Shown: positions 23,534 through 63,936, counted from the first letter of the stretch. The stretch: 64,000 nucleotides of DNA from Planctomycetota bacterium (GCA_016794485.1 JAEUHV010000081.1:3133-67132); one strand, 5' to 3'. The notes: a model not told the origin generated them from the letters alone. Translations and numbers: made by a program.

Positions 23534-23580
23534 GCCGGAGTGGCGGAATCGGCAGACGCACAGGTTTCAAAACCCTGTGC
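23534..23580 (+). repeat. attL core: non-functional 5' half of tRNA-Leu(CAA)
   Basis: 23534-23572 is identical (39/39) to 63850-63888, and 45/47 through 23580. It has no variable arm, T arm or 3' acceptor strand. Confidence 0.9.
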
Positions 23581-24633: not shown

Positions 24634-25256
24634 ACCTGCTCGTTCTGCAGAAGCTCCTCCAGTCCCTGAAAGTCGGCGGCGTTGTCGTAAGAGAAGGAAC
24701 GAAGGTCGTCACTGCCGCGGTCGATGCGCAGCTGGAGGCGCTACTCTTGACCCCGAAGGGTCGTGAGTTGCGCGATGCAGCGGTCCGCTGGCCGAGGGGC
24801 GAGGCCGCGACCGGAACCGAGATCTGGGACCACTTGATGGCGTGCGACCTCGATCAACGGATCGAGTTGATGCGTGGGTCGGTCGGCGTCTTCGTCGTCG
24901 AAGCGAGCTTCCTGCGAAAGGCACGGAAGAGTGCTCTGGAAGGGCGGATGATCGAACTCGCCCTAGTCGCAACGACGCCGCCGCACACCATCTTTGGCGG
25001 CAAGGACAGGCGGCTGGCGGATCTGCTGAAGTTCATCCTCGAGAACGGGGTGGACCTGGGCAAGTCGATCAACGAGCTGCCAGGCTATCTGCGTGCCCTA
25101 TTCGACGAGGCCGAGGCCTACAAGGCTCGGTCGATTGCCGCTGAGAAGAGCGCGCAGGATGCGAACAGAAGCACGCTGGATCTGCTCGCCAAGGCGATCG
25201 CGCTTCGAGACGCGATCGAACTGTTGACGCGCCAGGCGCAAGGCGGTGTCTCGTGA
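24630..25256 (+). CDS. hypothetical protein
   Basis: GTG 24630 in the frame of track ORF 23988..25256. Visibly less GC-rich than its neighbours. Ends ...RQAQGGVS with a GTGA overlap. Confidence 0.5.
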   Translation: MNLLVLQKLLQSLKVGGVVVREGTKVVTAAVDAQLEALLLTPKGRELRDAAVRWPRGEAATGTEIWDHLMACDLDQRIELMRGSVGVFVVEASFLRKARKSALEGRMIELALVATTPPHTIFGGKDRRLADLLKFILENGVDLGKSINELPGYLRALFDEAEAYKARSIAAEKSAQDANRSTLDLLAKAIALRDAIELLTRQAQGGVS

Positions 25257-26836
25257 CGCTCGCCTCGATCCCGCTCGCGACGATCCGCGAGAGCGCGACC
25301 AACCCGCGCAAGTCGTTCGACCCGGCGCAGCTCGCCGAACTGACCGCCAGCGTGCGGCAGTTCGGTGTGCTGCAGCCGATCCTGGTGCGCCCGGTGGCCG
25401 ACCTGCCCGGCGGCCTCACTGGCTACGAGCTGATCGCGGGCGCGCGCCGGCTCCGCGCCGCGGCGGCCGCCGGCCTCGACACGATCCCGGCGATCGTGCG
25501 CGACCTCGACGACCGCGCGACGCTCGAGGTCCAGGTGATCGAGAACCTGCAGCGGCAGGACCTGGGCATCCTCGAGGAAGCCCGCGGGTTCGACCTGCTG
25601 CACCGCGAGCACGGCTACGACGTCGCCGAGCTGGCGGCCAAGGTCGGCAAGTCGACCAGCTACGTCTACGGCCGCATGCAGCTGGTGCGCCTGCCGCAGG
25701 AAGCGCAGCAGCTGATCGATGCCGGCCGCCTGACCGCCGCGCACGCCCTGCTGCTCGCCCGGATCCCGTCGCCCGAGGTCGCGGCGGCCGCGGCCCAGGA
25801 GCTGGCCGGCGACAGCAACGGCCCGCTGCCGATCCACGAGGCGCGGCACGTCGTGCAGAGCTACTACATGCTGCGGCTCGACGCGGCCCCGTTCGACACG
25901 ACGGACGGCACCCTCGTGCCGGCCGCCGGCCCGTGCAGCTCGTGCCCGAAGCGGACCGGCAACCAGAAGGGCCTGTTCGAGGACATCGAGGGTGCGGACC
26001 TGTGCACCGACAGCGGGTGCTTCGGGGCCAAGCGAGCCGCTGGGTTCGAGCGCGCGCGCGAGGACGCCGAACGTGCCGGAATCGAGGTCCTGCCGAAGGC
26101 GAAGACGCAGGCGATCGACTCGGTCCGGCTCGAGGAGGTCTGCTACGACGACCCGAAGCGGCGGACCTACCGCCAGCTGCTCGGCGGCCGCAAGGGCATC
26201 GCCGGCGTCGAGGGCCGGGTCCTGGGCCAGACGCACGACGGTGCGGCCGAGTGGCGGTTCCCGCGGAAGAAGCTGAAGGCCGCGCTGAAGGCGGCCGGGC
26301 ACGACTTCCGCAAGCCCGCGAAGCCGGCGGCGAGCAAGGCGGACGTCGCGGCGCGCAGCGAGCGCGAGATCCTGCGCGCGGTCAACGACGAGATGCACGC
26401 CGCGACCGTGCGCGCGATCCTCGGGGACGAGATGCTGGACGTCCTCCAGCTGCTGCCGCACTGGATCGACCTTGCCGGCTCGAACCTGTTCGGGCACGAG
26501 CGCGACGAGCTGGCCAAGCGCTGGGGCGCGGCCGCCACCGCGGCGGGGATCGACTGGAAGTGTCGCCAGCGCAGCGTGCCGCAGCTGTGCGCGATCCTGA
26601 CCGACCTGCTGCTGGACGACCCGCAGACGTTCGCCGTGCCGGCCGAGCTGGCCGCGCTGGTGGGCGTCGACCGGGGCAAGGTCGAGCGCGAGGTGCGCCA
26701 GCAGGCCGACCTCGACGCCGCCGGCGCGAAGCTGAACCCGAAGAAGGCCGGGCCGAAGCCGCCCAAGCCGACGAGCAAGAGGCCGAAGGCGAAGAAGGGC
26801 AAGGAAGCCGCCGCCGGCGGGGAGCGTGACGCATGA
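25253..26836 (+). CDS. ParB/Srx-fold N-terminal domain protein (ParB-like nuclease/partition-type), long form
   Basis: Classic ParB N-domain blocks: NPRK, VRQFGVLQPILVRPV, YELIAGARRLRAA, VIENLQRQDL. A Cys cluster (CSSCPKRTGNQ...CTDSGCF) and a Lys-rich C-terminal tail follow. Confidence 0.8.
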   Translation: MTLASIPLATIRESATNPRKSFDPAQLAELTASVRQFGVLQPILVRPVADLPGGLTGYELIAGARRLRAAAAAGLDTIPAIVRDLDDRATLEVQVIENLQRQDLGILEEARGFDLLHREHGYDVAELAAKVGKSTSYVYGRMQLVRLPQEAQQLIDAGRLTAAHALLLARIPSPEVAAAAAQELAGDSNGPLPIHEARHVVQSYYMLRLDAAPFDTTDGTLVPAAGPCSSCPKRTGNQKGLFEDIEGADLCTDSGCFGAKRAAGFERAREDAERAGIEVLPKAKTQAIDSVRLEEVCYDDPKRRTYRQLLGGRKGIAGVEGRVLGQTHDGAAEWRFPRKKLKAALKAAGHDFRKPAKPAASKADVAARSEREILRAVNDEMHAATVRAILGDEMLDVLQLLPHWIDLAGSNLFGHERDELAKRWGAAATAAGIDWKCRQRSVPQLCAILTDLLLDDPQTFAVPAELAALVGVDRGKVEREVRQQADLDAAGAKLNPKKAGPKPPKPTSKRPKAKKGKEAAAGGERDA

Positions 26837-29674: not shown

Positions 29675-30290
29675 ACGCGACCTCCGGCGCCTGGGCATCG
29701 GGGCGCGGAATCCGGCCGCCAGGCGCATGCTGGCCCTGCTGCTGCACGACGTCGACCACGACGCGGTCGAGTGGATCGTCACGCAGGCGGCCCGCCAGGA
29801 CGGCGTCGAGCTGGCACCCAGCACCGCCACGACCTGGCTGCAGGATGGCAGCTGGCGCGACCTCTGGACCGCCGAGCTGCGCCGGCGCGCGGCCGCCTCG
29901 ACCGAGGCCATGCCGCGCGATCGCCTCGAGGGCCTGGTGGCGTGCCGCGTGATCGCGGACCGGTGCTCGCTCGACCAAGTCGCGGCCGAGTTCCAGCTGG
30001 CGCGCGACGAAGTGCGACGCCTGGTCGTGCGCGGCGCGGTCGCGCGCGGCCTGACCGACCAGCAGGTCGACGAGCTGTTCGGCGTCGCGGCACCGTCGTC
30101 GCGCCGTAGTGCCGAGGCCTTCGCCGAGGCCCGCACGCGCTACGCCGCCGCTACGGCGGCCAAGCCCGCGACTGCCGCGCCAGCGGCCCGCCCGACGCGC
30201 GACGACCTCGCGCGCATCTACGCGCAGGCCGGCCGCAAGGCGCCCGCGCACGTCGTCGAGATCCTGACGCGCGAACGGACCACCCCATGA
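29664..30290 (+). CDS. hypothetical protein
   Basis: Track ORF with a GTG start that overlaps the upstream stop. No motif recognised. Confidence 0.4.
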   Translation: MVSERDLRRLGIGARNPAARRMLALLLHDVDHDAVEWIVTQAARQDGVELAPSTATTWLQDGSWRDLWTAELRRRAAASTEAMPRDRLEGLVACRVIADRCSLDQVAAEFQLARDEVRRLVVRGAVARGLTDQQVDELFGVAAPSSRRSAEAFAEARTRYAAATAAKPATAAPAARPTRDDLARIYAQAGRKAPAHVVEILTRERTTP

Positions 30291-31639
30291 AGAAGCCGAA
30301 GAAGCCCCCCACCACCGCGCGCGTTTGGCACGGCGCGCCGCAGCTCGAGCAGGCGCTGGTCGCCGTGTCCGAGCTGAAGCTGGATCCGGCGAACCCTCGC
30401 CGGCACGGAGACCGCAACCTCGAGGCGATCCGGGCCAGCCTGTTCCAGTTCGGCCAGCTGCGGCCGATCGTCGTGCAGCGCTCGACCATGCAGGTCGTGG
30501 CCGGCAACGGCACCATGCGGGCCGCGCAGATGCTCGGCTGGACGCACGTCGCGGCCACGGTCACCGCGATGAGCGACGCCGAGGCCCGGGCGTTCTCGGT
30601 TGCCGACAACCGCACGGCCGAGCTGGCCGAGTGGGATCCTGACCAGCTCGCGGCCGCGCTGTCGGACCCGTCGCTCGACGATCTGCTCGGCGCCACCGGT
30701 TTCACGCAGGCCGAGATCGACAAGCTGCTGGGCGACGACGCTTCGGGGCTGCCGCCGCAGCGGCCCGAAAATATTCGCGAGAATATTCCGCGGTCGACGC
30801 CGGACGACGACGAGCAGGACGAGGACGAGGGCACCACCGAACCGGCCAACGGTGAGGCCGACGACCCGATCCCGGAGCTGCCGAAGGAACCGAAGACGAA
30901 GGCCGGCGACGTGTGGGTCTGCGGCGACCACGAAGTGCTCTGCGCGGACTCGTTTGGCGACGTCGCGGCCGCGTTCATCGGCCGTGCGCGCTTCGACGCC
31001 GTCGTCACGGATCCGCCGTACGCGATCTTCGGAAGCTCGACCGGGGTCGCCAGCGACATCGCCGACGACAAGATGGTGCGCCCGTTCTTCGCGCAGCTGG
31101 GCCGCCTGATGGCGGCCGCGTTGAAGCTGTTTGGGCACGCCTACGTGTGCACGGATTGGCGCAGCTGGGCCGCGCTGTGGGAGTCGTTGAAGGGCACCAA
31201 CATCCGCGTTCGCAACATGCTGGTGTGGAACAAGCGCGGATCCGGCCTGGGCAGCAACTACGCGAACACCCACGAGCTGATCGCGTTCGCGGCGCACCTG
31301 CCCGAGCAGAAGGCGATGACCTCGCGGCAGCAAGCCGGCGTGCGCCCGGTGCACAAGGGCAACGTGCTCGAGTTCAACCGACCGACGGGAGACGACCGTC
31401 CACACAATGCGAGCAAGCCGGTCGGCCTGATCCAGCAGCTGATCGAGAACAGCACCGACAAGGGCGGGCTGGTGCTCGAGCCGTTCGGCGGCGGCGGTTC
31501 GACGCTGGTCGCCTGTGAGAAGGCCGGCCGCCGCTGCCGGCTGATCGAGATCGAGCCGAAGTGGTGCGACGTCATTGTGGCGCGCTGGGAGCAGCTGACC
31601 GGACGGAAGGCCGAACGGCGCGAGGGCCAACGATGCTGA
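30287..31639 (+). CDS. ParB-like N-domain fused to an N6-adenine/N4-cytosine DNA methyltransferase
   Basis: ParB block (LKLDPANPRRH..FGQLRPIVV..VVAGNGTMRAA), then the methyltransferase motifs DAVVTDPPY (motif IV) and LEPFGGGGSTLVACEKAGRRCRLIEIEP (motif I). Confidence 0.85.
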   Translation: MKKPKKPPTTARVWHGAPQLEQALVAVSELKLDPANPRRHGDRNLEAIRASLFQFGQLRPIVVQRSTMQVVAGNGTMRAAQMLGWTHVAATVTAMSDAEARAFSVADNRTAELAEWDPDQLAAALSDPSLDDLLGATGFTQAEIDKLLGDDASGLPPQRPENIRENIPRSTPDDDEQDEDEGTTEPANGEADDPIPELPKEPKTKAGDVWVCGDHEVLCADSFGDVAAAFIGRARFDAVVTDPPYAIFGSSTGVASDIADDKMVRPFFAQLGRLMAAALKLFGHAYVCTDWRSWAALWESLKGTNIRVRNMLVWNKRGSGLGSNYANTHELIAFAAHLPEQKAMTSRQQAGVRPVHKGNVLEFNRPTGDDRPHNASKPVGLIQQLIENSTDKGGLVLEPFGGGGSTLVACEKAGRRCRLIEIEPKWCDVIVARWEQLTGRKAERREGQRC

Positions 31640-35184: not shown

Positions 35185-35712
35185 GTGCTCGACCACGACA
35201 AGCTCGCCGCCGCTGCCGGATGCTCGCGCCGAACCCTCGAGCGGTGGCGACGCCGTGGCGCACCGATGCCGGCCGCCGACGAGTCGATCGAGGGCTGGGT
35301 CGCGCGCCTGCGCACCTGGAACGCCTCGCTGCCGAAGAAGAACGGCCGCCGCGTGTTCGCTGCACCTGGTGCCGAGACCGACAAGCCCAAGGGTGTCGAC
35401 TGGGAGGAAGAAGGCCGTCGCGCGCTGGCACTGACCCGCATCCACGACCTGCAGGTCAAGCGGGGCAAGTTCATGCCGCGCGACCAGGTCGTCGACGAAT
35501 GGGCACGCCGTGCGTTCGCGGCCTCGCGTCGGTTCCTCGCGTTGCCGCGTCAGATCGCCGGCGCGGTCACGGCCGCGCCCGAGGTCCGGGCGCAGATCGA
35601 ATCGGAAGGCCTGCGCCTGGTGCGGGAAGCGCTGCTCGAGTTCGTCGCGACCAGCGAGAGCACCCCCACGCCGCCAGCGCTGCAGAACCTCGACGGTGAG
35701 CTGTCGTCATGA
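35185..35712 (+). CDS. terminase small subunit (Nu1-like, N-terminal wHTH)
   Basis: GTG start. LAAAAGCSRRTLERWRRRGAPMP resembles the Nu1 HTH. Lies directly upstream of and overlaps TerL. Confidence 0.65.
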   Translation: MLDHDKLAAAAGCSRRTLERWRRRGAPMPAADESIEGWVARLRTWNASLPKKNGRRVFAAPGAETDKPKGVDWEEEGRRALALTRIHDLQVKRGKFMPRDQVVDEWARRAFAASRRFLALPRQIAGAVTAAPEVRAQIESEGLRLVREALLEFVATSESTPTPPALQNLDGELSS

Positions 35713-37613
35713 CGATGACCATCGATCCGAAGTGGACCACGCCGCCGCGCATCGACCGCGCCGAGGCCGATGCCTGGCGTCCACCCGAGCACCTGTCGCC
35801 AACCGAGTGGGCCGATCGGTTCCGGTTCCTCGACCCTCTGGTGAACGCGGCCGGCGGCCGCTACTCGAGCGACTTCACCCCCTACGCCCGCGAGTGGCTC
35901 GACAACGCGGCGATCGGCTGGGTGCGCCAGACCACGATCGTCGCGGGCACGCAGATCGGCAAGACCGAGACCATCAACAACGCGATCGGGTTCGCGATCG
36001 CGCAGGACCCTGGGCCGGCGATGCTGGTCGTGCCGCGCGCAGTCGACATCCAGACCACGCAGGAACGCCGCCTGGTGCCGATGATCGACGCGACGCCGGT
36101 GCTGCGCGAGCAGCGCACGGACCACGCGCACGACGAGAAGCGTCGCGAGATGCTGTTCCGGCGCAGCATCCTCTACCTGCGCAGCTCGCAATCACCGGCC
36201 GACCTGGCCAGCGTGCCGGTGCGCTACCTGTTCTGCGACGAGGTCGACAAGTATCCGGGGTGGTCAGGCCGCGAGGCCGCGCCGCTCGACCTGGCGCGCG
36301 AACGGCAGCGCACGTTCTGGAACGCCACGACCTACGTCGTGTCGACCCCCACCACCCGCGACGGCACGGTCTACCGCGAGTTCCTCGACGGCGATCGCCG
36401 GCGGTATTGGCTGCCCTGTCCATTCTGTAACTGGTGGCAGCTGCTCGAATGGAAACAGATCAGGATTCCGCCGACCGTTCGCACGGCAAAGGAGATGCGG
36501 CGCGAGCGGTCAGCCACCTATCACTGCAGCCGGTGCAACGTCGCGATCCCGGACACGGCCAAGCGAGACATGCTGCGGCGCGGGGTCTGGATTCCCGAGG
36601 GCCACACGGCCGAGGCGTGGCTCGGCGGCGAGCGCGATCGCGATCGAGCCGACCACCGGAGTTACCACATCTGGGCGGCCTACTCGCCGTGGCTGACCTG
36701 GTGGGAGATCGCGGCCAAGTTCCTGAAGGCGAAGGCCGACCCGGCGAGTTCGCTGATGAACTGGGTCAACAGCTGGCTCGCCGAGGTCTGGGAAGACAAG
36801 GTCGAGGCGCCGACCGACGACAACGTCGCGGCCGCGATCGTGCCCGGCCTGACGATGGGCGGCGGCGAGCAGGTGCCGCCCCACGTGCTGGTCGCCACCG
36901 CCGGCATCGACGTGCAGAAGGACCGCGCCTACTACGTCGTGCGCGGCTGGGGCTACGACGAGGAAAGCTGGCTGCTGGCGGCCGGCCAGGTCGCGACGCT
37001 CGAGGAGCTGGGCGACGTGCTGTTCCGCAACGTGTGGGCGAGCCGCGGCAGCGTCGGCGTGCGGTGTGCCCTGATGGACTCGCGGTATCGCCGCGACGAG
37101 GTCGTCGACCTGGCCCGCCGGTGGCCGCAGCTGCGCCTCGGCGTCGGCGTCGACCGACAAGGGCCGATCGACTTCACGACCGCGCGCCTCGAGAAGCACC
37201 CGCGCACCGGCCAGCCGTTGCCGAACTCGCTGCTGATCTGGTCGCTGAGCGTGGGCCGGTTCAAGGACTACGTCGCGCACCGGATGCGCAAGCCCGAGAC
37301 CTGGCACCTGCCTGAGGACCTGCCCGACGGCTACCGCGCGCAGGTCACGAGCGAGCACAAGATCCGGGTGCGCACCGGTGCGCGCGACGTCGAGCGATGG
37401 GTCGTCAAGCCAGGCAGCGCGGCGAACCACTACTGGGACGCCGAGGTCTACGCCGCAGCTGCGGCCAAGATGATCCGGGTCGAGCTGCTGAAACGCCGCG
37501 GCGACGAACCGCCTGGTGCTCCACCACCGCCAAGCAAGCGCCCGCGGCCGCCAGGTCCGCCGCGGCGTGATCGCGAACGCGAACCCTCGAGGTTCCCGAG
37601 GCTGTCGCGATGA
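35709..37613 (+). CDS. terminase large subunit, lambda GpA family
   Basis: 634 aa. GpA-like N-terminus (LSPTEWADRFRFL..GRYSSDFTPYAREWLD), Walker-like GTQIGKTE, and a C-terminal nuclease region. Confidence 0.9.
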   Translation: MTMTIDPKWTTPPRIDRAEADAWRPPEHLSPTEWADRFRFLDPLVNAAGGRYSSDFTPYAREWLDNAAIGWVRQTTIVAGTQIGKTETINNAIGFAIAQDPGPAMLVVPRAVDIQTTQERRLVPMIDATPVLREQRTDHAHDEKRREMLFRRSILYLRSSQSPADLASVPVRYLFCDEVDKYPGWSGREAAPLDLARERQRTFWNATTYVVSTPTTRDGTVYREFLDGDRRRYWLPCPFCNWWQLLEWKQIRIPPTVRTAKEMRRERSATYHCSRCNVAIPDTAKRDMLRRGVWIPEGHTAEAWLGGERDRDRADHRSYHIWAAYSPWLTWWEIAAKFLKAKADPASSLMNWVNSWLAEVWEDKVEAPTDDNVAAAIVPGLTMGGGEQVPPHVLVATAGIDVQKDRAYYVVRGWGYDEESWLLAAGQVATLEELGDVLFRNVWASRGSVGVRCALMDSRYRRDEVVDLARRWPQLRLGVGVDRQGPIDFTTARLEKHPRTGQPLPNSLLIWSLSVGRFKDYVAHRMRKPETWHLPEDLPDGYRAQVTSEHKIRVRTGARDVERWVVKPGSAANHYWDAEVYAAAAAKMIRVELLKRRGDEPPGAPPPPSKRPRPPGPPRRDREREPSRFPRLSR

Positions 37614-37828
37614 CCAGGCACGACGAGCTGCAGGACGCCGACCACCTGCCCCTGGTCCCGTTCTGCCCGTTCCGCTGCCCGGCTTGCTCGGCAGCGAAGC
37701 CATTCACCTACGGCCAGAAGGGCCGGTTGCGCTACCACCGCTGCCAGGAGTGCGGCACGCGCTACCGGTCGCTCGAGCTGCGCCGCGAGCAGCTCGCCGA
37801 CTTCGACGCGAAGCCCGACGGTCTGTAG
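37610..37828 (+). CDS. small zinc-ribbon protein
   Basis: CPFRCPAC ... CQECG (two CxxC pairs). ATGA overlap with TerL. Confidence 0.5.
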   Translation: MTRHDELQDADHLPLVPFCPFRCPACSAAKPFTYGQKGRLRYHRCQECGTRYRSLELRREQLADFDAKPDGL

Positions 37829-37882: not shown

Positions 37883-40800
37883 ATGGGCAACACGCACTAC
37901 TACCACATCGTGGGCGATGGGCACGTGCGCGGCACCGGTGGCGGAAACCAGCCGCAGCTGCTCGAGCCGATCGCGGGCATGACGCTGACGCTGGTCGGCG
38001 TCGCGACGCCGCCGGTGCTCAACACGATCGTGACCGGCGCGACGTCGGGCGCGCAAGCCCGCGTCACGAGCCTGCAGGATGGCGGCGGCGGCGTGTTCAT
38101 CCTGCAGCTGCTGACGCTGAACGCGCTCGCCTACACGAATGGCGAAACGGCCAACTTCGACAGCGGCGGCAGCGGTGTGATGCTCGGCATTGCGAGCATG
38201 CAGATGGCGCCCGGCCTGCTGCAGTTCGTGCCCGAGTCGAAGGACGCGATGCTGCAGACGACGTCGCCGACCGGCCTCGGCGACACCCCGTGGTGGGATC
38301 GCTGGTGCAAGACGGCGAGCGAGGTCACGGTCGCGGCAGGATGGACCGGCACGTTCACGGCAGGCCAGCGCGTCACGACCAGCGGCGGCGGTGCGTTCAC
38401 GGTGGTGCTCGTTACGGCCGGCGGCGGCGGCACGCTGTCGCTGAAGGTGGCACGCAAGACCGGCACGATCGCGGCCGCCCAGACGATCACCGGGCCCACC
38501 GGCAGCGGCACGATCAGCGTCTACCAGGGAGACCTCGCGGCGGGCAACTGGATCCAGCACAACCACATGCCGAACATCGGGGGGCTCGGCACCTACTTCG
38601 AGCGCATCCCGCACGGTTCGGGCGTCATTCGTTCCGACGGCACCGCCGACGCGACGATCGGCGTCGAGAAGTGGATCCTCGAGCAGGCGATCACGAAGCA
38701 CACCGCGTCGATCGACGCGACGGATCGCGGCGTGCGCGTGGTCCCGTTCTCGACGTTCGACGACACCCCGACGAAGGCAACGATCGGCGGGGTCGTGATC
38801 CAGACGGTCGAGTGCTCGGGCACGTTCCCCGTGACCTGGACGATCGGCGAGACCGTGACCGGCCCCGGGGGCTGGTCCGCCACCGTGCATTCGTTCAACG
38901 CGACCGCGAAGTTCCTGCACGTCGTCGAGCCGAACGGGGCGACGCTGGGTGCCGGCACGGTCACGGGCGCGACCAGCGGTGCGACCGCCACGGCGATCGC
39001 GTGCCACGGCTGGCAGAAGGGGTCGAGCTACTGGAACAACTGGAAGGCGAACAAGGACACGAGCCTGGCCGCCACCAACGGGCTGTTCTCGTCGGCGGCC
39101 GCGAAGCACGAGGGCGCGTTCCTGATGCTGTGGGAAGGCGAGCTGGGATCGCTCGGCCCGTCCGTGCTGGCGACCATACCGACGATCGAGCGCGTGGTCG
39201 AGGAGTGGCTGCGGTTCCTCGCGGACTTCCGCACCGAGCTGGGCAACTCGACGATGCCCATCACGCTGTTCTACGGCGACGTGCGGCAGCACGGCAGCGA
39301 TCTGCCTGGCGGTGCCTACCTGCTGCGTAGCTGGCTGCTGAGTGTGTCGGTGAAGGCGACGAAGGTCACGCTGACCACGGCCGACGGGCTCGAGGGCCAA
39401 AAGCTCGGCGGCCTGCCGAACCCGACCTCGTTCCTCTACTGGCGCCCGCTCGACTATGTCGAGATCGGTCGCCGTGCCTGGCGGTCGCTCGAGTTCGCGA
39501 TGAGCGAACCGGCCAGCGGCAACTTCGAACCGCTGCCCCTGATCTTGCTCGCCGGTCAATCGCACGCCGTCGGCAACGTGCCGTTCGCCTTCGCGTCGAT
39601 GGACAACGACCCGGACCTCTACAGTTCGGTGTCGTTCCCGGGCGTGTCGACGATCGATCCGAAAGTCTGGATGTGGCACGCAAGTGCGCACGTCTGGCAG
39701 AACTACGACGCGGGCCTCAACGGGAACACGTTCTTCGCACCATTCGCCGGCCTGTTCGGCAGCGAGTGCAGCCTGCTGCTGCGGCAGAAGTATCGGTTCG
39801 GCCTCGACGGCGCGCCCGGCGAGGTCGGGATGATCAAGCTGGCGGTCGGCGGCAGCAGCGTGTCGTCGACCAGCGTGGGCGCGCCGGCGTGCTGGGACCC
39901 GAACGGCAGCGCCCGGTCGACCACGACGGCCAGCATGACCGTGACCGCGCAGGCCGCGTCGCTGCCGGCGGTGCCTGCGCGCGGCCGATTCACCGCGACG
40001 GCCGGCACGTTCTCGTCCTACCAGAACCTCGCGGCCGTGACCGTCACCGGCAGCGCTGCCGGCCAGCTCGGCGCCGGCGGCAACAACACGGCGCCCGACA
40101 CGATCGCGAACGTGCACGCGGTCGCGCCAGACGGGACGTGGGTCGAGCTGATCGGCCCGTTCGTCAACGAGGGCCCGCGGTCCTTCACCCTCACGCTGGG
40201 CCCGATCCCGCTGGTCGATCGAGTCGAGGCCGAGATCCGGCTGGCCCTCGAGAAGTGCGTGACGCAGCTGCGCCGCATCCCGAAGCCGGTGCTCAAGGTC
40301 TGGTGGCAGGCCGAAGGCGACCTGCTGAACATCGCACCCTACAAGGAAGCGCTGCTGCGCACGCTGCGGTGGCTGGAGGACATCTTCGGCCAGCGGCACA
40401 AGGGAGAGACGCCGGTCGCCACGGTCATCATGGAGCTGACCGGCCGCACGCCGTGGCAGGTGTCGGACACGGCGATCGCGCAGCTGCAGCAGATCCAGGC
40501 CGAGGTCGCGGCCGAGCTGGGCAACGCGGTCGTGGTGTCGACCAGCTCGCTGCCGCAGGAATCAGCCGGGATCTTCCCGCGCACTACGCGGCAACACAAC
40601 GGGATCCACCACACGCCGCGTGGCTACATCCAGGCCGGCTATCTCGCCGACGCTGGTGCGAACGGCCTGATCGGGATCCCGGACTACCCAGCCACGAGCC
40701 CCCTCGCCGGCGTCGACCAATTTGTCGACGGTGCCGCAGATGCCGGCGGGGGTTCCACTGACAGCGGCACCGACGCAACGACCGACGCGACCGACGCGCC

Positions 40801-41050
40801 GGCAACGACCGACGAGGCCGAGACGCCAACGGCCGCGGTCGACGGCATGACCGGGCAGAGCGCGACCACGATCATGCAGCAGATCGAGGAAGCGCTGTCC
40901 GCCGGCGGCATCGACATCGCTGGCTACACGATCAACGGACGCACGGTGCAGAACCGCAGCCTGTCCGAGCTGATCGAGCTGCATCGCTACGTGACCGCGC
41001 AACAGCAGCGCGACCGAGGCATCCGCCGCACCCGCGTTCGCTTCACCTGA
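37883..41050 (+). CDS. large virion-module protein: beta-rich repeats, SASA/SGNH-type carbohydrate O-acetylesterase-like domain(s), C-terminal gpW-like head-tail joining domain
   Basis: SASA-like blocks in order: LILLAGQSHAVGN, MIKLAVGGSSV, VWWQAEGDLLN, NGIHHTPRGYIQAGYLADA. An upstream degenerate copy is present (AFLMLWEGELG ...). An acidic Thr/Asp linker follows. The last 67 aa are gpW-like, and the ORF occupies the W slot between TerL and portal. Confidence 0.6.
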   Translation: MGNTHYYHIVGDGHVRGTGGGNQPQLLEPIAGMTLTLVGVATPPVLNTIVTGATSGAQARVTSLQDGGGGVFILQLLTLNALAYTNGETANFDSGGSGVMLGIASMQMAPGLLQFVPESKDAMLQTTSPTGLGDTPWWDRWCKTASEVTVAAGWTGTFTAGQRVTTSGGGAFTVVLVTAGGGGTLSLKVARKTGTIAAAQTITGPTGSGTISVYQGDLAAGNWIQHNHMPNIGGLGTYFERIPHGSGVIRSDGTADATIGVEKWILEQAITKHTASIDATDRGVRVVPFSTFDDTPTKATIGGVVIQTVECSGTFPVTWTIGETVTGPGGWSATVHSFNATAKFLHVVEPNGATLGAGTVTGATSGATATAIACHGWQKGSSYWNNWKANKDTSLAATNGLFSSAAAKHEGAFLMLWEGELGSLGPSVLATIPTIERVVEEWLRFLADFRTELGNSTMPITLFYGDVRQHGSDLPGGAYLLRSWLLSVSVKATKVTLTTADGLEGQKLGGLPNPTSFLYWRPLDYVEIGRRAWRSLEFAMSEPASGNFEPLPLILLAGQSHAVGNVPFAFASMDNDPDLYSSVSFPGVSTIDPKVWMWHASAHVWQNYDAGLNGNTFFAPFAGLFGSECSLLLRQKYRFGLDGAPGEVGMIKLAVGGSSVSSTSVGAPACWDPNGSARSTTTASMTVTAQAASLPAVPARGRFTATAGTFSSYQNLAAVTVTGSAAGQLGAGGNNTAPDTIANVHAVAPDGTWVELIGPFVNEGPRSFTLTLGPIPLVDRVEAEIRLALEKCVTQLRRIPKPVLKVWWQAEGDLLNIAPYKEALLRTLRWLEDIFGQRHKGETPVATVIMELTGRTPWQVSDTAIAQLQQIQAEVAAELGNAVVVSTSSLPQESAGIFPRTTRQHNGIHHTPRGYIQAGYLADAGANGLIGIPDYPATSPLAGVDQFVDGAADAGGGSTDSGTDATTDATDAPATTDEAETPTAAVDGMTGQSATTIMQQIEEALSAGGIDIAGYTINGRTVQNRSLSELIELHRYVTAQQQRDRGIRRTRVRFT
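40847..41050 (+). CDS. possible nested gpW-like head-tail joining protein (in-frame internal start)
   Basis: In-frame ATG 40847 gives a 67-aa product, MTGQSATTIMQQIEEALSAGGIDIAGYTINGRTVQNRSLSELIELHRYVTAQQQRDRGIRRTRVRFT. Lambda gpW is 68 aa with a similar pattern, DGRRVEF..SVSDLKKYIAELE..RRRG. Confidence 0.4.
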   Translation: MTGQSATTIMQQIEEALSAGGIDIAGYTINGRTVQNRSLSELIELHRYVTAQQQRDRGIRRTRVRFT

Positions 41051-42723
41051 TGAGCACCATTCCGCACAACCGGGCGCCGCTGGTGCGCATCCTCGACGCG
41101 AACGGTCGCCCGTTCCCGAGCACGCGCGCGTTGTCGTCCCGATCGGGCAACGGCTTCGCCGGCGCGAAGTCGCGATCGGTCGCGCTTCGCCACGACGCGG
41201 CCCGCATGGATCGGGTGCGGACGCGCGCGCGCAGCGGATCGGCCGACGGCGACCTGGCGCCGGACCTGCAGGTGCTGCGCGAGAAGTCGCGCGCCCTGGT
41301 TCGCGACGACGCGCACGGCGCGGCCGCCGTGCGAGTGCTGGTCGAGAACGTGGTCGGCGACGGCATCCGGCCGCAGGCCGCGGTGCACCCTGAGAACACC
41401 GGCCTGACGCAGAAGCAATGCGACGAGTGGAACCGTGCCGCCGAGCGGATCTGGTGCGAGTGGGCCGCCGCGCACGCCGACGCGAACGACATCGGTTCGT
41501 TCGACGACCTGACGCGCCAGGTCTACCGTTCACGCGTCGTCGACGGCGAGGCCCTCGTGCACCGCATCGAGGTCGACGGCGACGACCGCCGGCTGCGCAC
41601 GGCCTGGGAGATGATCGACGTCGACCGCCTGCAGGACCCCACCAGGCTGCAGGCGCTGGCGGTTCGGATGGGCGTCGAGATCGGCACGCGCGGCCAGCCG
41701 GTGGCCTACTGGATCACGCCCCACCACCCGGACGACCTGCGGTTCCTCAACGGCCAGATCGTCGGGGCGAACTGGCCCGAGCGCATCGAGCGCGTGCGGC
41801 TCGGAATCTGGAACGTGCTGCACGTGTTCCGCCGCGATCGCGCGGGGCAAAGCCGCGGCCTGCCCGCGCTGACCGCCGCGATGCCGCTGTTCGAGCACCT
41901 GCACCACTACCTCGACAGCGAGATCATCGCGGCGCGTGCGAACAGCAACGTCGCGATGTTCGTGCGCCGGCCGATCGACGATCGCGATCCGGACCTCGCG
42001 CCGGTCGACGACATCGGTCCGAACGGCGACGGCGAGATCGTCTACCACGAGACCCTCGAGCCGGGCACCATCGAGTATCTGAACGAGGGCGAGGAGATCC
42101 AGCCGTTCACGCCGAACCGGCCGGGCTCGACGTTCGACCCGTTCGTGACCCGCATCCTGCGCGCGATCTGCGCCGCGATGGGGCTGCCTTACGAGCTGGT
42201 CGTGAAGGACTTCGGCCAGATGACCTACAGCAGCTCGCGCGCCGTGCTGCTCGAGGCCCGCCGCGGGTTCACCAGCGAGCAGAACTCGCTGATCGGCAGC
42301 TGGCTGCAGCCAGCGTGGGAAACCGTCATGCGCGAGGCGATCGTGCGCGGGCTGCTGCCAGTCTATCCCGCGATGGTGCAGAACCTGCGCGCGTTCCTGG
42401 CCGCGCGGTGGATCCGCCCCGCCTGGGGCTGGGTCGATCCGGTGAAGGAGATCGAGTCGGCACGGCTCGCGGTCGAGGCCAACCTGTCGACGCCGGACAT
42501 CGAAGCCTCGCGCGCCGGCCTCGACGCGACCGACATCCTCGAGCAACGCGCCCGCTTCTACGTGCGCGCCCGCGAGATCGAAGCCCGCAACGGGCTCGAG
42601 CCAGGAACCCTCACGCGCGAGCGCTCCGAGCGCATCGAGGCCGTGCAACCCAAGGCCGGCAAGGGTGAGGAACAGAAGCCACCCGCCGGCAAGAAGACGG
42701 ACGACGAGGACGACGACCAATGA
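41050..42723 (+). CDS. portal protein, lambda gpB family
   Basis: 557 aa directly after the W-like region. Lambda-family portal pattern and an acidic C-terminal tail. Confidence 0.85.
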   Translation: MSTIPHNRAPLVRILDANGRPFPSTRALSSRSGNGFAGAKSRSVALRHDAARMDRVRTRARSGSADGDLAPDLQVLREKSRALVRDDAHGAAAVRVLVENVVGDGIRPQAAVHPENTGLTQKQCDEWNRAAERIWCEWAAAHADANDIGSFDDLTRQVYRSRVVDGEALVHRIEVDGDDRRLRTAWEMIDVDRLQDPTRLQALAVRMGVEIGTRGQPVAYWITPHHPDDLRFLNGQIVGANWPERIERVRLGIWNVLHVFRRDRAGQSRGLPALTAAMPLFEHLHHYLDSEIIAARANSNVAMFVRRPIDDRDPDLAPVDDIGPNGDGEIVYHETLEPGTIEYLNEGEEIQPFTPNRPGSTFDPFVTRILRAICAAMGLPYELVVKDFGQMTYSSSRAVLLEARRGFTSEQNSLIGSWLQPAWETVMREAIVRGLLPVYPAMVQNLRAFLAARWIRPAWGWVDPVKEIESARLAVEANLSTPDIEASRAGLDATDILEQRARFYVRAREIEARNGLEPGTLTRERSERIEAVQPKAGKGEEQKPPAGKKTDDEDDDQ

Positions 42724-44780
42724 CGACGACGAAGAAGGTCCCGCTGGAAGCCTGCACGTTCCTCCTGACCGAGGCCGGCCAGGATGCCGAGGTCCTGCTG
42801 GCGGCCGCCACCGCCGAGAGCGGCGGCGAGTCGCGGTTCGAGATCGCGGCCCTGTCGGGCAAGGTGATCGAGAACCACTGGTGGTGGGGCAACCTGGCCA
42901 TCGAGCTGTCGGGCATCAAGGGCAAGGGCAAGGTGCCGGTGCTGGTCGACCACAACGTCGGCCTGCGGATCGGCGTGTCGGACGACCGCGAGATCGACGC
43001 GAAGCGCGGCCTGGTCATGCGCGGCAAGTTCCTGAAGTCGAGCCCGCTCGCGGCCCAGGTGCGCGACGAATCGAAGGACGGGTTCCCCTGGGAGGCCTCG
43101 GTGCGCGTCGTGCCGCTGAAGGTCGAACAGATCCCGGAGGGCGTCGAGGCCGAGGTCAACGGGCAGAAGGTCCGGGGGCCGGGGCACATCTTCCGTCGGT
43201 CGCAGCTGCGGGAAGTCTCCTTCACCGCACTGGGTGCCGACCACAACACTTCCGCCGCGGCGCTGTCGGAGGCGTCGCCCGAACTCGCGGTGGAGTTCTC
43301 CACACTGGCGACGAACGAGGACACGATGACGAAGAAGATCGAAGGGGCACAGGTGCCGGAGCCGCAGGCGCCGAACGAAGTGCAGTTGGCCGAGCAGCAC
43401 AAGCAGGCCGGCATCAAGGCCGAGCGCGACCGCGTGGCCGCGATCCGGTCCGCCGGCACGCCCGAGCAGGCCGCGCTGGTCGACGAGCTGATCGTCGGGG
43501 GTGCCGAAATCTCGGCGGCCCAGGCGCGCTTGTCGGAAGACCTCCGGACGCGGTTCCGCGTCATGATGAACCAGTTCGCGAACCGCGAGGGCTCGCTGAG
43601 CGGCGGCAACCGCGGCGAGCAGGTCGACACCAAGCTGGCGCAGATCAACGCGCTCGAGGAAGGCCGCGACAAGTGGGCCGCGCAGTGGGACCACGATGCG
43701 AGCCTGCGCGCGCAGTTCCTGCGCAAGGACGACTTCCTGGCGTTGCGCGACGTCGAGCTGGCGGGCTGGAACCCCTCGCGGATCCGCCGGCGCGACGACA
43801 AGGGCCAGCCGTTGGCCGTGCGTCCGTGGGACGAGGTCGCGCTGGCCGCGTCGTCGCCCTCGAGCCCGGTCACGATCGCGGGAGTGCGCGCCGGCTACGC
43901 CGCCTCGCTGCAGGCCATGCTGGGCCTGTCGTGGGCGCGCCAGATCGCCAGCGCGTTCCCGACCAGCTCGCCGTCCGAGACCTACCCGTGGCTGCGCGCA
44001 GTGCCGAACCCGCGGAAGTGGGAAGGCGAACGGACCACGCAGGAGCTGCGGTCGGACGTCGTGACGATCGTCAACGACGACTACGAGAACTCGATCGAGT
44101 TCAAGGTGCCGGACCTGCGACGCGACAAGACGGGCCAGATCATGGCCCGGGCTGCCGACCTCGCGACCCGCGTCGCGTTTTTCCCCGAGCACCTGATCAC
44201 CGCGCTGCTGACCGCGAATGGCAACGCCTACGACAACGTCGCGTTCTTCGCGACGACGCACGCCGTCGGTTCGAGCGGCACGATCAACAACAACATCCTG
44301 GCCGCCGACGGCCTGGCTGGCGGCACGGCGCCGTCGACCGCCCAGATGAGCACCAACCTGCTGCTGATCCTGGGCAAGATGCTGGCGTTCCTCGACGACC
44401 AGGCGCAGCCGGTCAACGAGGCCGCTCGCCAGCTGATGGTCATGGTGCCGGCGAACCTCTACGGCGCGACGGTTGCGGCGATCAACGCGATGTTCACCAG
44501 CGCGTCGGCGACGAACCCGCTCGGCGAGCTGGCTCGCTACGGCTTCTCGTTCACGCCGGTGCTGAACGCGCGCCTGACCACGCAGAACCAGTTCTACGTG
44601 TTCCGCGCCGACGCGGGCATCCGGTCCCTGCTGCTGCAGGAGGAAGGCGTCAACCCGGTCGAGCTGGGCCCGGACAGCGAGCACGCGAAGAAGACGAACC
44701 GCGTGCTGTTCGGCCACGGCTGGGCCGGCGGCGTCGGCTACGGCCGGTTCGAGATGGCGATCCGGGGCACGACCTCGTGA
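42720..44780 (+). CDS. prohead protease (HK97/S78-like) - scaffold-like linker - Mu gpT-like major capsid protein, single ORF
   Basis: N-terminus VPVLVDHNVGLRIG..GLVMRGKF..EASVRV..EVSFTALGADHNT (S78 pattern). Middle coiled coil (AERDRVAAIRSAG..). C-terminal ~330 aa is gpT-like (WEGERTTQELRSDVVTIVNDDYENSIEFKVPDLRRDKTG...). Confidence 0.75.
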   Translation: MTTTKKVPLEACTFLLTEAGQDAEVLLAAATAESGGESRFEIAALSGKVIENHWWWGNLAIELSGIKGKGKVPVLVDHNVGLRIGVSDDREIDAKRGLVMRGKFLKSSPLAAQVRDESKDGFPWEASVRVVPLKVEQIPEGVEAEVNGQKVRGPGHIFRRSQLREVSFTALGADHNTSAAALSEASPELAVEFSTLATNEDTMTKKIEGAQVPEPQAPNEVQLAEQHKQAGIKAERDRVAAIRSAGTPEQAALVDELIVGGAEISAAQARLSEDLRTRFRVMMNQFANREGSLSGGNRGEQVDTKLAQINALEEGRDKWAAQWDHDASLRAQFLRKDDFLALRDVELAGWNPSRIRRRDDKGQPLAVRPWDEVALAASSPSSPVTIAGVRAGYAASLQAMLGLSWARQIASAFPTSSPSETYPWLRAVPNPRKWEGERTTQELRSDVVTIVNDDYENSIEFKVPDLRRDKTGQIMARAADLATRVAFFPEHLITALLTANGNAYDNVAFFATTHAVGSSGTINNNILAADGLAGGTAPSTAQMSTNLLLILGKMLAFLDDQAQPVNEAARQLMVMVPANLYGATVAAINAMFTSASATNPLGELARYGFSFTPVLNARLTTQNQFYVFRADAGIRSLLLQEEGVNPVELGPDSEHAKKTNRVLFGHGWAGGVGYGRFEMAIRGTTS

Positions 44781-62320: not shown

Positions 62321-62649
62321 AACCGAAGGCCCACATCGTGGCGCACGACGGGCGCGGCCCGCGGCCGTTCGGCTTCGAGTGCCTGCACTGCGGATCGGTG
62401 CATGCTCTGCAGGTGCCCATCAGTCTGGCGATGTGGGGCGAGGCGGCGAAGGCCTTCCACGTCCTGCACCGGGACTGCAAGGAACGCCGCGCCGGGGCCC
62501 GCCGGCAGGCGGACTCGTTCACGATCAACGCGGTCGACGGCCGCGACGTGCAGCGCATGCTGCTCGAGCAGCGCGAAACGACCAGGGCCGTGTTCGCGCA
62601 CGGGCAGAAGCTGCGGCGCCAGGACTTGAGGAAGGGAGACGAGGGCTAG
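62317..62649 (+). CDS. small Cys/His protein whose C-terminus duplicates the tape measure C-terminus
   Basis: ATG 62317 (ATGA overlap). N-terminus CLHCG...HRDC. C-terminus SFTINAVDGRDVQRMLLEQRETTRAVFAH matches tape measure residues SFTINAVDGRDVQRMLLEQRETIMAVFAH. Confidence 0.5.
   Translation: MKPKAHIVAHDGRGPRPFGFECLHCGSVHALQVPISLAMWGEAAKAFHVLHRDCKERRAGARRQADSFTINAVDGRDVQRMLLEQRETTRAVFAHGQKLRRQDLRKGDEG
62515..62610 (+). repeat. direct repeat copy B
   Basis: Matches 51598-51693 at an offset of 10,917 bp: 62 identical nt, then scattered mismatches. Confidence 0.95.
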
Positions 62650-63755
62650 CCGTGATCCGCCGCCGCCTGACCACCCTCGACGTAGCGAAGCCGACCCGAG
62701 GCCGCGTGCAGGTCCGCCGCGACCAGGTGGACGTAGCGCTGGGTGGTGGCGTAGCTGCTGTGGCGCAGCATCGCCTGCACGGTGCCGGCCGGCACGCCGG
62801 CCCGGATCAGGTTCGTGGCCAGGCTGTGGCGCAAGGCGTGCGGGTGGAATCGGCGATCGCCGAAGCGCTTCGCCCAGCGGCGGAACACGCGATCGATCGC
62901 CTGCACGCGCCGCTTCTCGGACTCGCCGGCGACGATGAAGCCGCCGCGCGCGCGCTCGACCAGGCGCTGCGCGACGGCCAGGATCGGCGCGGTGATCGGC
63001 GCGGGCACGTCGTCCGTCTTGCCGCGCACCAGAAACACGCTGCGGCCCAGGTCGAAGTCGGCCGCGTGCAGCCGCGCCAGCTCGGCCCGGCGCAGGCCGG
63101 AGTAGGCCAGGAAGATGACCAGGTCGAAGTCGTCGGGCGCGACCGTGCGCAGGTGCTCGAGGCGCGCGGCCAGCTCGGCCTCGCCGAGCACGTCGGGCGA
63201 GGCCTGGCGTGGTTCGGGCCAGCTGGCGAGCGGCACCGGATTCTCGCCGCGGAACCACTGCCGCTGCGGCATCGAGCACCAGCGCACCAGGCGGTTGAGC
63301 CAGCGGCGGTAGTGCTGGATCGTGCGCGCCGCGAAGCCGCCGCGCTGCGCGAGAGCGACGAGCTGCTGCAGCACGCCGGGCGTCAGGCGAGCCAGCGGCA
63401 GGTCGCCGTCGATGATCCGGAACACGGCCTTCGCCTGGGCCTTGTAGAACTGGACCGTGCCGTCGCGCCGCAGGCCGACCAGCTCGCAATGCATCGCCTC
63501 GGCGGCCTCGCGCAGCGTCTTCGTCACGAACGGCGTCGCGGCGTCGCCGGCGCGCAGCTCGATCGCGTCGCGGTGCGCGGCCAGCGGCTCGTCGCGCCAG
63601 GGGCCGTAGCAACGGCGCCGGCCGATCATGGCCCAGGCGCGGTAGGCGGTGACGCGCCGCTGGTCGGTCGGCAGCTCGCGATCGCGGGGATCGTGCCGCA
63701 CCTGCACGAACGGAGGAAGACGCCTGCCGCGTCCCGTGCCGCGTCTGTTCGCCAT
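62646..63755 (-). CDS. int: tyrosine integrase
   Basis: ATG 63755 (MANRRGTGRGRRLPPF...). Catalytic contexts ..RRAELARL.., HALRHSLAT, LRHSSYATTQRYVH. Adjacent to the tRNA. Confidence 0.9.
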   Translation of the reverse strand: MANRRGTGRGRRLPPFVQVRHDPRDRELPTDQRRVTAYRAWAMIGRRRCYGPWRDEPLAAHRDAIELRAGDAATPFVTKTLREAAEAMHCELVGLRRDGTVQFYKAQAKAVFRIIDGDLPLARLTPGVLQQLVALAQRGGFAARTIQHYRRWLNRLVRWCSMPQRQWFRGENPVPLASWPEPRQASPDVLGEAELAARLEHLRTVAPDDFDLVIFLAYSGLRRAELARLHAADFDLGRSVFLVRGKTDDVPAPITAPILAVAQRLVERARGGFIVAGESEKRRVQAIDRVFRRWAKRFGDRRFHPHALRHSLATNLIRAGVPAGTVQAMLRHSSYATTQRYVHLVAADLHAASGRLRYVEGGQAAADHG

Positions 63756-63772
63756 GTTTCGCACCCTACCAT

Positions 63773-63798
63773 GTGGCCGAACTTGTGGCCACGTGGGC
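63773..63798 (+). repeat. putative integrase arm-type sites (right arm)
   Basis: GTGGCC (63773), GTGGCC (63785), GTGGGC (63793). Same orientation as the left-arm copies. Confidence 0.4.
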
Positions 63799-63806
63799 AA
63801 CAACTG

Positions 63807-63836
63807 TTGACACCATGCACGACGTAACCCTAGGCT
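63807..63836 (+). promoter_or_regulatory. putative phage-borne promoter for the reconstituted tRNA-Leu
   Basis: TTGACA (63807-63812), 18 nt, TAGGCT (63831-63836). The tRNA 5' end is at 63850. Confidence 0.35.
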
Positions 63837-63849
63837 GCACCAAGCCCTC

Positions 63850-63936
63850 GCCGGAGTGGCGGAATCGGCAGACGCACAGGTTTCAAAAACCTGCGCCCTC
63901 ACGGGCGTGCGGGTTCAAGTCCCGCCTCCGGCACCA
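63850..63936 (+). tRNA. tRNA-Leu (anticodon CAA), class II with long variable arm, CCA encoded
   Basis: Manual fold. Acceptor GCCGGAG/CTCCGGC. D arm GTGGCGGAATCGGCAGACGC. Anticodon stem CAGGT/ACCTG with loop TTCAAAA. Variable arm CGCCCTCACGGGCGTG. T arm GCGGG-TTCAAGT-CCCGC. Discriminator A plus CCA. Confidence 0.9.

Follow-up and report, generated by a model that had tools for sequence, protein, structure and literature searches.

The 64,000-nucleotide stretch of Planctomycetota bacterium DNA analysed here (GCA_016794485.1 JAEUHV010000081.1:3133-67132; hereafter the window, from whose first nucleotide all positions are counted) carries a prophage in which one long gene, encoding 1055 amino acids (aa), lies between the genes for the large terminase and the portal. 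This gene (37883..41050, + strand, with an ATG start and a TGA stop) was called as an open reading frame (ORF), is supported by homologues, and specifies a protein identical to JNK15_03085, which is annotated as hypothetical in a Planctomycetes metagenome-assembled genome at NCBI. Upstream is the gene for a GpA-type large terminase (35709..37613, +; PF05876 and PF20454), and downstream is that for a lambda-family portal (41050..42723, +; PF05136), whose ATG overlaps the TGA of the long gene by 1 nucleotide. The original prediction, made from the sequence of the window, had noted a 3.2-kb ORF between the GpA terminase and the portal, in the slot that gene W occupies in phage lambda; the ORF is found there and Pfam identifies the adjoining genes, but the slot also holds a 72-aa zinc-ribbon ORF that had been overlooked. 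With better than even confidence, the long gene is read here as an esterase-adaptor fusion, that is, as the portal adaptor of the prophage (Ad1, a head completion protein that corresponds functionally to lambda gpW and to gp004 of phage R4C) with a large N-terminal passenger that displays a glycan esterase at the neck.

The 1055-aa ORF is confirmed to be real, uniformly coding and conserved. The guanine-plus-cytosine (GC) content at third codon positions is 0.80-0.98 across all 50-codon blocks of 37883..41050, linker and tail included, and this uniformly high value means that the interval is one continuous coding frame. A word-index search recovered 38 full-length homologues of 781-1270 aa with 29-48% identity, and an exhaustive search of 1.84 billion cluster representatives gave 213 profile hits, 64 of them below 1e-30; because of these two sets of homologues a chance ORF is excluded. 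The members of this family share a layout in which a conserved body (aa 1-940) is followed by a low-complexity linker and then by one of two C-terminal modules.

The C-terminal adaptor module

The C-terminal portal-adaptor (Ad1) module of the window protein (40847..41050, +) comprises a predicted helix, a beta-hairpin, a second helix and a basic C-terminal hook, and is homologous to residues 107-178 of the R4C adaptor. The latter is gp004 of the Dinoroseobacter siphophage vB_DshS-R4C (PDB 8GTD chain M; phrog_5774), to whose portal-binding part the last ~65 aa of the window protein are homologous and which is present in 8GTD as 12 chains on the portal. When a profile of 24 modules was compared with PDB sequences, the sole significant match was 8gtd_M, the R4C 'Head-to-tail joining protein' (E = 2.2e-6, residues 107-167), and alignment of the module profile with the R4C adaptor by hhalign (95.8%, E = 7.7e-9) covered residues 112-178, which include the tube domain, the adaptor loop and the C-terminal hook. 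Connector families of the PHROG collection are also matched by members of the set of 24, namely phrog_118 by 13 modules (best 1e-9), phrog_2545 by 12 (best 1e-6) and phrog_5774 by eight (best 6e-7); the R4C adaptor itself matches phrog_5774 at 6e-37 and is the founding type of that family. A Foldseek search with the AlphaFold model of the module, which is of low confidence, again gave 8gtd_M as the best PDB match (28% identity, E = 0.07). A homologue search seeded with the 24-module alignment returned nothing that scored.

Lambda gpW (PF02831, phrog_75; PDB 8K38 and 8XOW) occupies the same slot as the window gene, directly upstream of the portal gene and overlapping it, and at 68 aa is close in size to the 67-aa module, with the same predicted succession of helix, hairpin, helix and basic tail. 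A common weak match to phrog_2545 and the similar predicted topology are what link the two. Comparison of gpW with the module profile by hhalign was not significant (1.3%), a Pfam scan found PF02831 in neither the window tail nor the 24 modules nor five free-standing homologues, and the lambda gpW chains in the Foldseek search with the module ranked 16 and 18 at a non-significant E of ~3.5. The tail had been predicted to resemble gpW, and of this claim the part that stands is the identity as a portal adaptor, through homology to R4C 8GTD and to the PHROG connectors, while kinship to lambda gpW itself is only remote. By sequence, the module is filed as an R4C-type, gpW-sized portal adaptor, which would make it a functional and positional counterpart of gpW outside the demonstrated gpW Pfam family.

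The N-terminal body

An AlphaFold model of the whole protein was built with a 39-sequence alignment. Its mean predicted local distance difference test (pLDDT) score amounts to 84.9, and confidence is high for the body (aa 1-940). The body begins with a conserved strand, T-H-Y-Y-x-[IV]-[IV]-G-D-x-H-V-R-G (37883..37942, +), which resembles SGNH block I and has Gly or Ala at the nucleophile position in most members and Ser in 3/39. Three predicted beta-barrels are present: barrel 1 at aa 28-108 (37964..38206, +), barrel 2 at aa 140-220 (38300..38542, +) and barrel 3 at aa 300-380 (38780-39022, +), the last of these being inserted in the domain termed D1. A beta motif occurs twice in each barrel, each copy being a predicted beta-hairpin, at aa 47 and 87, 161 and 198, and 322 and 357; its repetition in the ORF had been noticed beforehand, but the copies number six and not five. 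Barrels 2 and 3 are homologous by hhalign (75%, E = 2.5e-5).

Two SGNH-like domains follow from each other by apparent duplication. D1 (aa 225-545; 38555..39517, +) is a degenerate SASA-like duplicate without the Ser and His, and D2 (aa 546-940; 39518..40702, +) is assigned as a SASA/NanS-like SGNH esterase domain from its fold, its motifs and the Pfam matches of homologues. The two align over 273 columns (hhalign, 84%, E = 7.8e-6) and have a beta-rich insertion at an equivalent place (in D2, aa 676-776; 39908-40210, +), which agrees with the earlier description of one degenerate and one apparently intact SASA/SGNH block series. At the position of the D2 His, D1 has Leu, Phe or Trp, and its N-terminal GDS-like block has Gly or Ala, with Ser in 3/39; on these residues it is most likely catalytically dead, and it is possibly a glycan-binding or scaffold domain.

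The conserved motifs of D2 are G558-Q559-S560, W-x-Q-[GA]-E-x-D813 and N906-G-x-H909-x-T. Ser560, the putative nucleophile (codon 39560..39562, +), is Ser in 38/39 sequences, and His909, the putative general base (codon 40607..40609, +), is His in 37/39; G558 and Q559 are retained in 34/39 and 35/39, respectively, and there is Asn instead of Asp at His-3. The active site of NanS has Ser19 and His301 without a catalytic Asp, and Gln18 in the oxyanion hole (PMC9063846). Like NanS and NanS-p (SASA, PF03629), D2 combines an SGNH type II fold with Gly-Gln-Ser, a His and no catalytic Asp, a likeness that does not imply sialic acid as the substrate of the window protein.

A Foldseek search of PDB with the whole model returned 9h4u (8.5e-6), 2apj (template-modelling score 0.77, E = 3.7e-5), NanS (3pt5, 4.6e-5), 1zmb, CE20, Ape1 and the Pan3 tailspike. 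As the whole model was searched, these SASA/SGNH matches can be assigned to D2 by the positions of the SASA matches in homologues and by the motifs; the D2 region is modelled with pLDDT mostly 80-97. Structure matches of the body to viral proteins include an RcapNL tail-module protein and cyanophage fibre and 'neck' proteins. A search of PDB sequences with the whole-family profile gave nothing meaningful. PF03629 is matched in 12/39 homologues (best 2.5e-9), and in a rescan with scores four homologues (P0005, P0023, P0024 and P0025) lay above the gathering score; the window protein shows no match to PF03629, even for sub-segments at E up to 10. The SASA call made in the original prediction is accordingly carried by the homologues and by the fit of the AlphaFold model to SASA/SGNH esterases, but not by any Pfam match of the window protein itself. 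On the evidence of motifs and model, D2 is a probable sugar O-acetylesterase.

Body and adaptor are joined by an acidic linker rich in Thr, Asp, Ala and Gly (aa 945-995; 40715..40867, +), which is predicted to be disordered (pLDDT <50), as befits the acidic Thr/Asp linker described previously. Both its length and its sequence differ among homologues.

Distribution of the fusion and a second adaptor type

The family ends in one of two types of module that show no similarity to each other. Type A, with a module of ~65 aa, is represented by 25 sequences including the window protein. Type B, found in 13 of the 38 full-length homologues, has a module of ~170 aa that matches DnaT_2 (PF20557; best 2e-27) and phrog_477 'head-tail adaptor Ad1' (4e-36); it is an alternative C-terminal anchor of the family, absent from the window protein, and its profile found no match among PDB sequences. 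At two loci (L002 and L005) the type-B fusion gene comes after Mu-F-like, scaffold and capsid genes and before those for the tail terminator and tube, a position that is the own adaptor slot of that head type. In the databases the proteins of the family are named 'hypothetical' or 'DnaT-like ssDNA-binding protein' (ssDNA, single-stranded DNA).

A domain census of 175 sequences, sorted into exact-match classes, placed 35 sequences in N-D1-D2-A, 16 in N-D1-D2-B, 19 in D2-A, six in D2-D2-A and 11 in D2-B. In twenty the A module is accompanied by a body that was not recognised or by no body, 21 are D2 alone, and six are N-D1-D2 without an adaptor. In every fusion of this census the adaptor is C-terminal. 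A 168-aa protein that has just one beta-barrel with the motif, then a linker and the module, indicates a graded series of passenger sizes. One protein of 1879 aa (P0047) has ~790 extra residues ahead of the same body-linker-adaptor architecture. Among the six body-only proteins, P0056-P0059 (1042-1050 aa) have neither linker nor adaptor and end just past the esterase domain; 'GDSH' is retained in the N-terminal block of two, a motif suggesting that the first SGNH-like domain of these two might have stayed active. No match to the whole protein or to two C-terminal modules was found by tblastn in 50,697 phage records.

Free-standing adaptors in close relatives

Homologues of the module that stand free of any body, 65-76 aa in length, exist. 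One of these, P0176 (69 aa), occurs in three relatives of the prophage (L008-L010), in the gene order terminase, 80-aa zinc-ribbon protein, P0176 and portal, and is 61% identical to the last 67 aa of the fusion protein (E = 3e-26); in L011 the same slot is held by P0177 (59 aa). The portal and terminase of L008-L011 are 69-70% identical to those of the window, and the relatives that bear the fusion are more distant (L003, portal 52% and terminase 49%; L006, portal 43% and terminase 47%). The order terminase, adaptor and portal is found in L003 and L006 as well as in L008-L011. Related prophages had been named in the original prediction as the place to look for a separate W gene, and such a gene exists there as P0176, where it replaces the long gene and does not accompany it. 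Read from these alignments, the window gene is a plain W-sized gene with ~988 extra N-terminal residues. The body is present or absent among close relatives, and it is therefore accessory and not essential for assembly.

A 727-738-aa protein is encoded in L008 (12261-14477), and also in L010 and L011, immediately behind the genes for capsid, cement and a 76-aa protein; the window has no similar-sized counterpart at that place. The 738-aa protein of the relative with the bare adaptor was considered as a displaced body and rejected, as it bears no resemblance to the esterase body.

Proposed display of the body at the neck

In the mechanism proposed here, twelve copies of the protein would bind the portal clip after DNA packaging via the C-terminal ~65-aa helix-hairpin-helix-hook module, and the portal-bound modules would give a docking surface for the stopper and tail. 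Each N-terminus would exit the ring outwards along the ~50-residue disordered acidic linker, which would hold a body of ~100 kDa on a tether at the neck, outside the capsid. In this body, three small beta-barrels would accompany two SGNH-like domains, one catalytically dead and the other a carbohydrate O-acetylesterase of the NanS type with Ser and His. The virion thus conceived probably carries a ring of twelve tethered enzymes at the neck, and the ring would most likely strip O-acetyl groups from host surface or matrix polysaccharide. Plausible benefits, which are not told apart, would be passage through or detachment from a glycan layer, release from debris, and receptor destruction, including on debris. 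We infer the full-length protein to be a virion component and to be enzymatically active, and likewise infer its substrate, its benefit and the 'receptor-modifying' role that had been suggested for the esterase.

Display at the neck is favoured because the fusion is conserved, because it recurs with two unrelated adaptor types, because the adaptor is always C-terminal, and because the R4C adaptor's N-terminal domain lies outside the capsid. The R4C adaptor has an N-terminal immunoglobulin-like (Ig-like) attachment domain (residues 1-106) besides its tube domain, adaptor loop and C-terminal hook; the attachment domain is linked through a long flexible loop and is positioned outside the capsid shell (PMC10276861). 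R4C and the window share the gene order TerL, small gene, adaptor, portal and protease-major capsid protein, their portals are homologous (25% identity, E = 7e-12), and in both the adaptor has an accessory N-terminal domain on a flexible segment; the adaptor of R4C forms a dodecamer on the portal, and that of the window prophage would do likewise. The passengers themselves differ, that of R4C being a lone Ig-like domain of ~100 aa in contact with the capsid, whereas that of the window protein is ~940 aa with three barrels, two SGNH-like domains and a ~50-aa linker, and no similarity was seen between the N-terminal parts of the two proteins. Lambda gpW, unlike the window protein, is without an N-terminal passenger.

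Several observations weigh against display of an esterase at the neck. Taken alone, the last 67 aa of the fusion protein give weak matches to PHROG connectors (E = 0.0016), and Pfam and PHROG scans of the whole window protein and three sub-segments gave no match. In two independent AlphaFold runs the module is modelled as helix, hairpin and helix with low confidence (pLDDT 45-74 in the whole protein and 62 alone). The six body-only proteins without an adaptor exist, and the body is dispensable for assembly, as a close relative is without it. Twelve 100-kDa bodies at one vertex are sterically demanding, and an enzyme at the neck would be about a tail length from the receptor-binding tip, where a role in adsorption is not obvious. 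There is also the precedent of phi24B gp84, a NanS-related esterase whose N-terminal domain binds the capsid; its esterase domain is apparently cleaved from this anchor in virions (bioRxiv 10.64898/2026.04.10.717836).

Alternative explanations

The alternative that survives best, which is nevertheless unlikely, is that of a nested gene. Initiation at the in-frame ATG of Met989 (40847..40849, +), or nearby, would yield a free adaptor of 67 aa to occupy most or all of the twelve sites on the portal, and the long product would be a minor virion component within a mixed ring or a non-structural esterase that is secreted or released by lysis. The ATG is present as predicted, lies ≤3 codons from the aligned GTG start of the free-standing homologue, and may be a relic of a start codon or still act as one; its product would be a near-exact counterpart of the free 69-aa protein that works alone in the relative. 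No Shine-Dalgarno-like sequence precedes it, an absence that says little, since the GTG start of the free homologue is also without an obvious one. More telling is that Met occurs within the 27 residues before helix 1 in 3/25 type-A fusions, that type-B fusions have the same architecture with a different adaptor, and that neither third-position GC nor conservation gives any sign of a separate gene start. The frame has, moreover, been kept open by selection across a variable linker in >100 representative clusters, which would be needless if the short product alone mattered. The original prediction had offered both a nested gene and an esterase-displaying connector; it is the connector that is favoured, the nested start being unsupported by conservation.

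It is quite unlikely that the protein is a precursor whose linker is cut by a protease, with the adaptor kept in the virion and the esterase freed as a soluble enzyme at lysis. A long disordered linker would be an accessible target for cleavage, the phage encodes a head maturation protease, and phi24B gp84 is found in virions in processed form (bioRxiv 10.64898/2026.04.10.717836), whereas the N-terminal domain of R4C stays attached. The linkers of the family, for their part, share no conserved motif by which a cleavage site might be recognised. In the lambda-like order of assembly the adaptor joins after head maturation, and adaptors would bind outside the shell and away from the prohead protease.

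Very doubtful is a structural collar without catalysis, in which the body is a glycan-binding or capsid-bracing ornament, in effect an enlarged R4C attachment domain, its SASA-like fold acting as lectin or scaffold. In R4C, a stabilising function has been proposed for the attachment domain (PMC10276861), D1 is clearly without nucleophile and His, and D2 has Asn, not Asp, at His-3; yet the Gly-Gln-Ser and His of D2 are retained in 34-38/39 sequences at 29-48% overall identity and match the Asp-less active site of a proven enzyme, NanS, and a 50-residue disordered tether fits reach better than bracing. An artefact in which faulty assembly or sequencing merged an esterase gene with a separate W-like gene, which the origin of the sequence in a metagenome-assembled genome and the separate small adaptor gene of a relative might suggest, has next to no probability and is effectively refuted by conservation, the same in-frame fusion being found in dozens of assemblies that are independent of one another and differ in sample and pipeline, with identities of 29-48% and either of two adaptor types, and the codon-position GC signal being unbroken.

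Relation to known virion-borne esterases

Adaptors with an accessory N-terminal domain, as in R4C, and virion-anchored SASA esterases, such as phi24B gp84 and the tailspike esterases, are already known. The window protein is like gp84 in that a phage esterase is fused to a small virion-anchoring domain, but the anchor of gp84 (DUF1737) is N-terminal and binds capsid hexons, whereas that of the window protein would be a C-terminal portal adaptor. Tail-borne SGNH esterases identified by Foldseek (the tailspike 9vyh of cyanopodophage Pan3, the Vi06 'predicted tail fiber protein' and RcapNL_00025) likewise have an SGNH/SASA-like fold on a virion protein; they differ in belonging to the tail-tip module, with attachment to the baseplate or tail, while the window protein would sit at the head-tail junction. 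A literature search of incomplete coverage, which can provide only absence of evidence, found no description of an esterase or other large enzyme fused to a portal adaptor. Portal adaptors are currently viewed as small and purely architectural, and enzymes acting on host glycans are expected on tail fibres or spikes. That the fusion defines a new class of neck appendage, an adaptor-anchored twelve-fold crown of flexibly tethered, active glycan O-acetylesterases that arose, or changed hands, repeatedly through fusion to two sequence-unrelated adaptor families and is gained or lost between close phages, is a proposal for which we see the case as evenly balanced.

If this is true, the neck would be an evolvable display platform, from which ~100 representative clusters at 50% identity hang a ~100-kDa body via two unrelated anchors. 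The head-tail junction would become a third mounting site for host-glycan-modifying enzymes, besides the tail tip and the capsid surface, and one more part of the virion in which to seek receptor-destroying or matrix-modifying activities. The arrangement would also offer a natural design for the attachment of cargo to virions at a fixed 12-fold stoichiometry, and would give a first functional annotation to proteins now named 'hypothetical' or 'DnaT-like ssDNA-binding'. It suggests, further, that O-acetylated surface glycans matter when phages infect Planctomycetes, for which group, to our knowledge, almost no phages have been characterised.

The prophage and neighbouring genes

The prophage is 40.3 kb in length and is delimited by an exact direct repeat of 39 bp (23534-23572 and 63850-63888). 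Of its two copies, the right one lies inside a tRNA-Leu(CAA) gene (63850-63936), in its 5′ part, and a gene for a tyrosine integrase (62646-63902, - strand) adjoins both the tRNA gene and this repeat copy. It is the 5′ end of the tRNA that the repeat covers, whereas the 3′ end is usual.

Between the terminase and the fusion gene lies the gene for the conserved 72-aa zinc-ribbon protein with four Cys residues (37610..37828, +). Proteins of this kind, with two CxxC pairs, are encoded at the same position between terminase and adaptor in L003, L006 and L008 (71-80 aa; 39-67% identity), and R4C has a different gene, of 150 aa, at that position. The 72-aa ORF was considered as the 'real W' and rejected, being a conserved four-Cys zinc ribbon without connector similarity in Pfam and PHROG scans.

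Downstream of the portal gene, a single 686-aa ORF (42720..44780, +) encodes a head maturation protease and, fused to it, a Mu gpT-like major capsid protein. The protease part of this ORF is phrog_3244, and a fusion of protease and major capsid protein is also found in R4C; in the relatives L006 and L008 protease and capsid have a gene each, one of 384 or 356 aa and the other of 310 or 312 aa. Genes for cement-like, tape-measure-like and gpJ-like tail proteins are found farther downstream, which indicates a tail of the siphovirus type. The early region of the prophage includes, on the + strand, genes for two ParB-N-domain proteins (25253-26836 and 30287-31639), one of which is fused to an N6/N4 DNA methylase, and to the left of 23.5 kb are housekeeping genes for ThiC, a PAS histidine kinase, an M32 carboxypeptidase and NifU.

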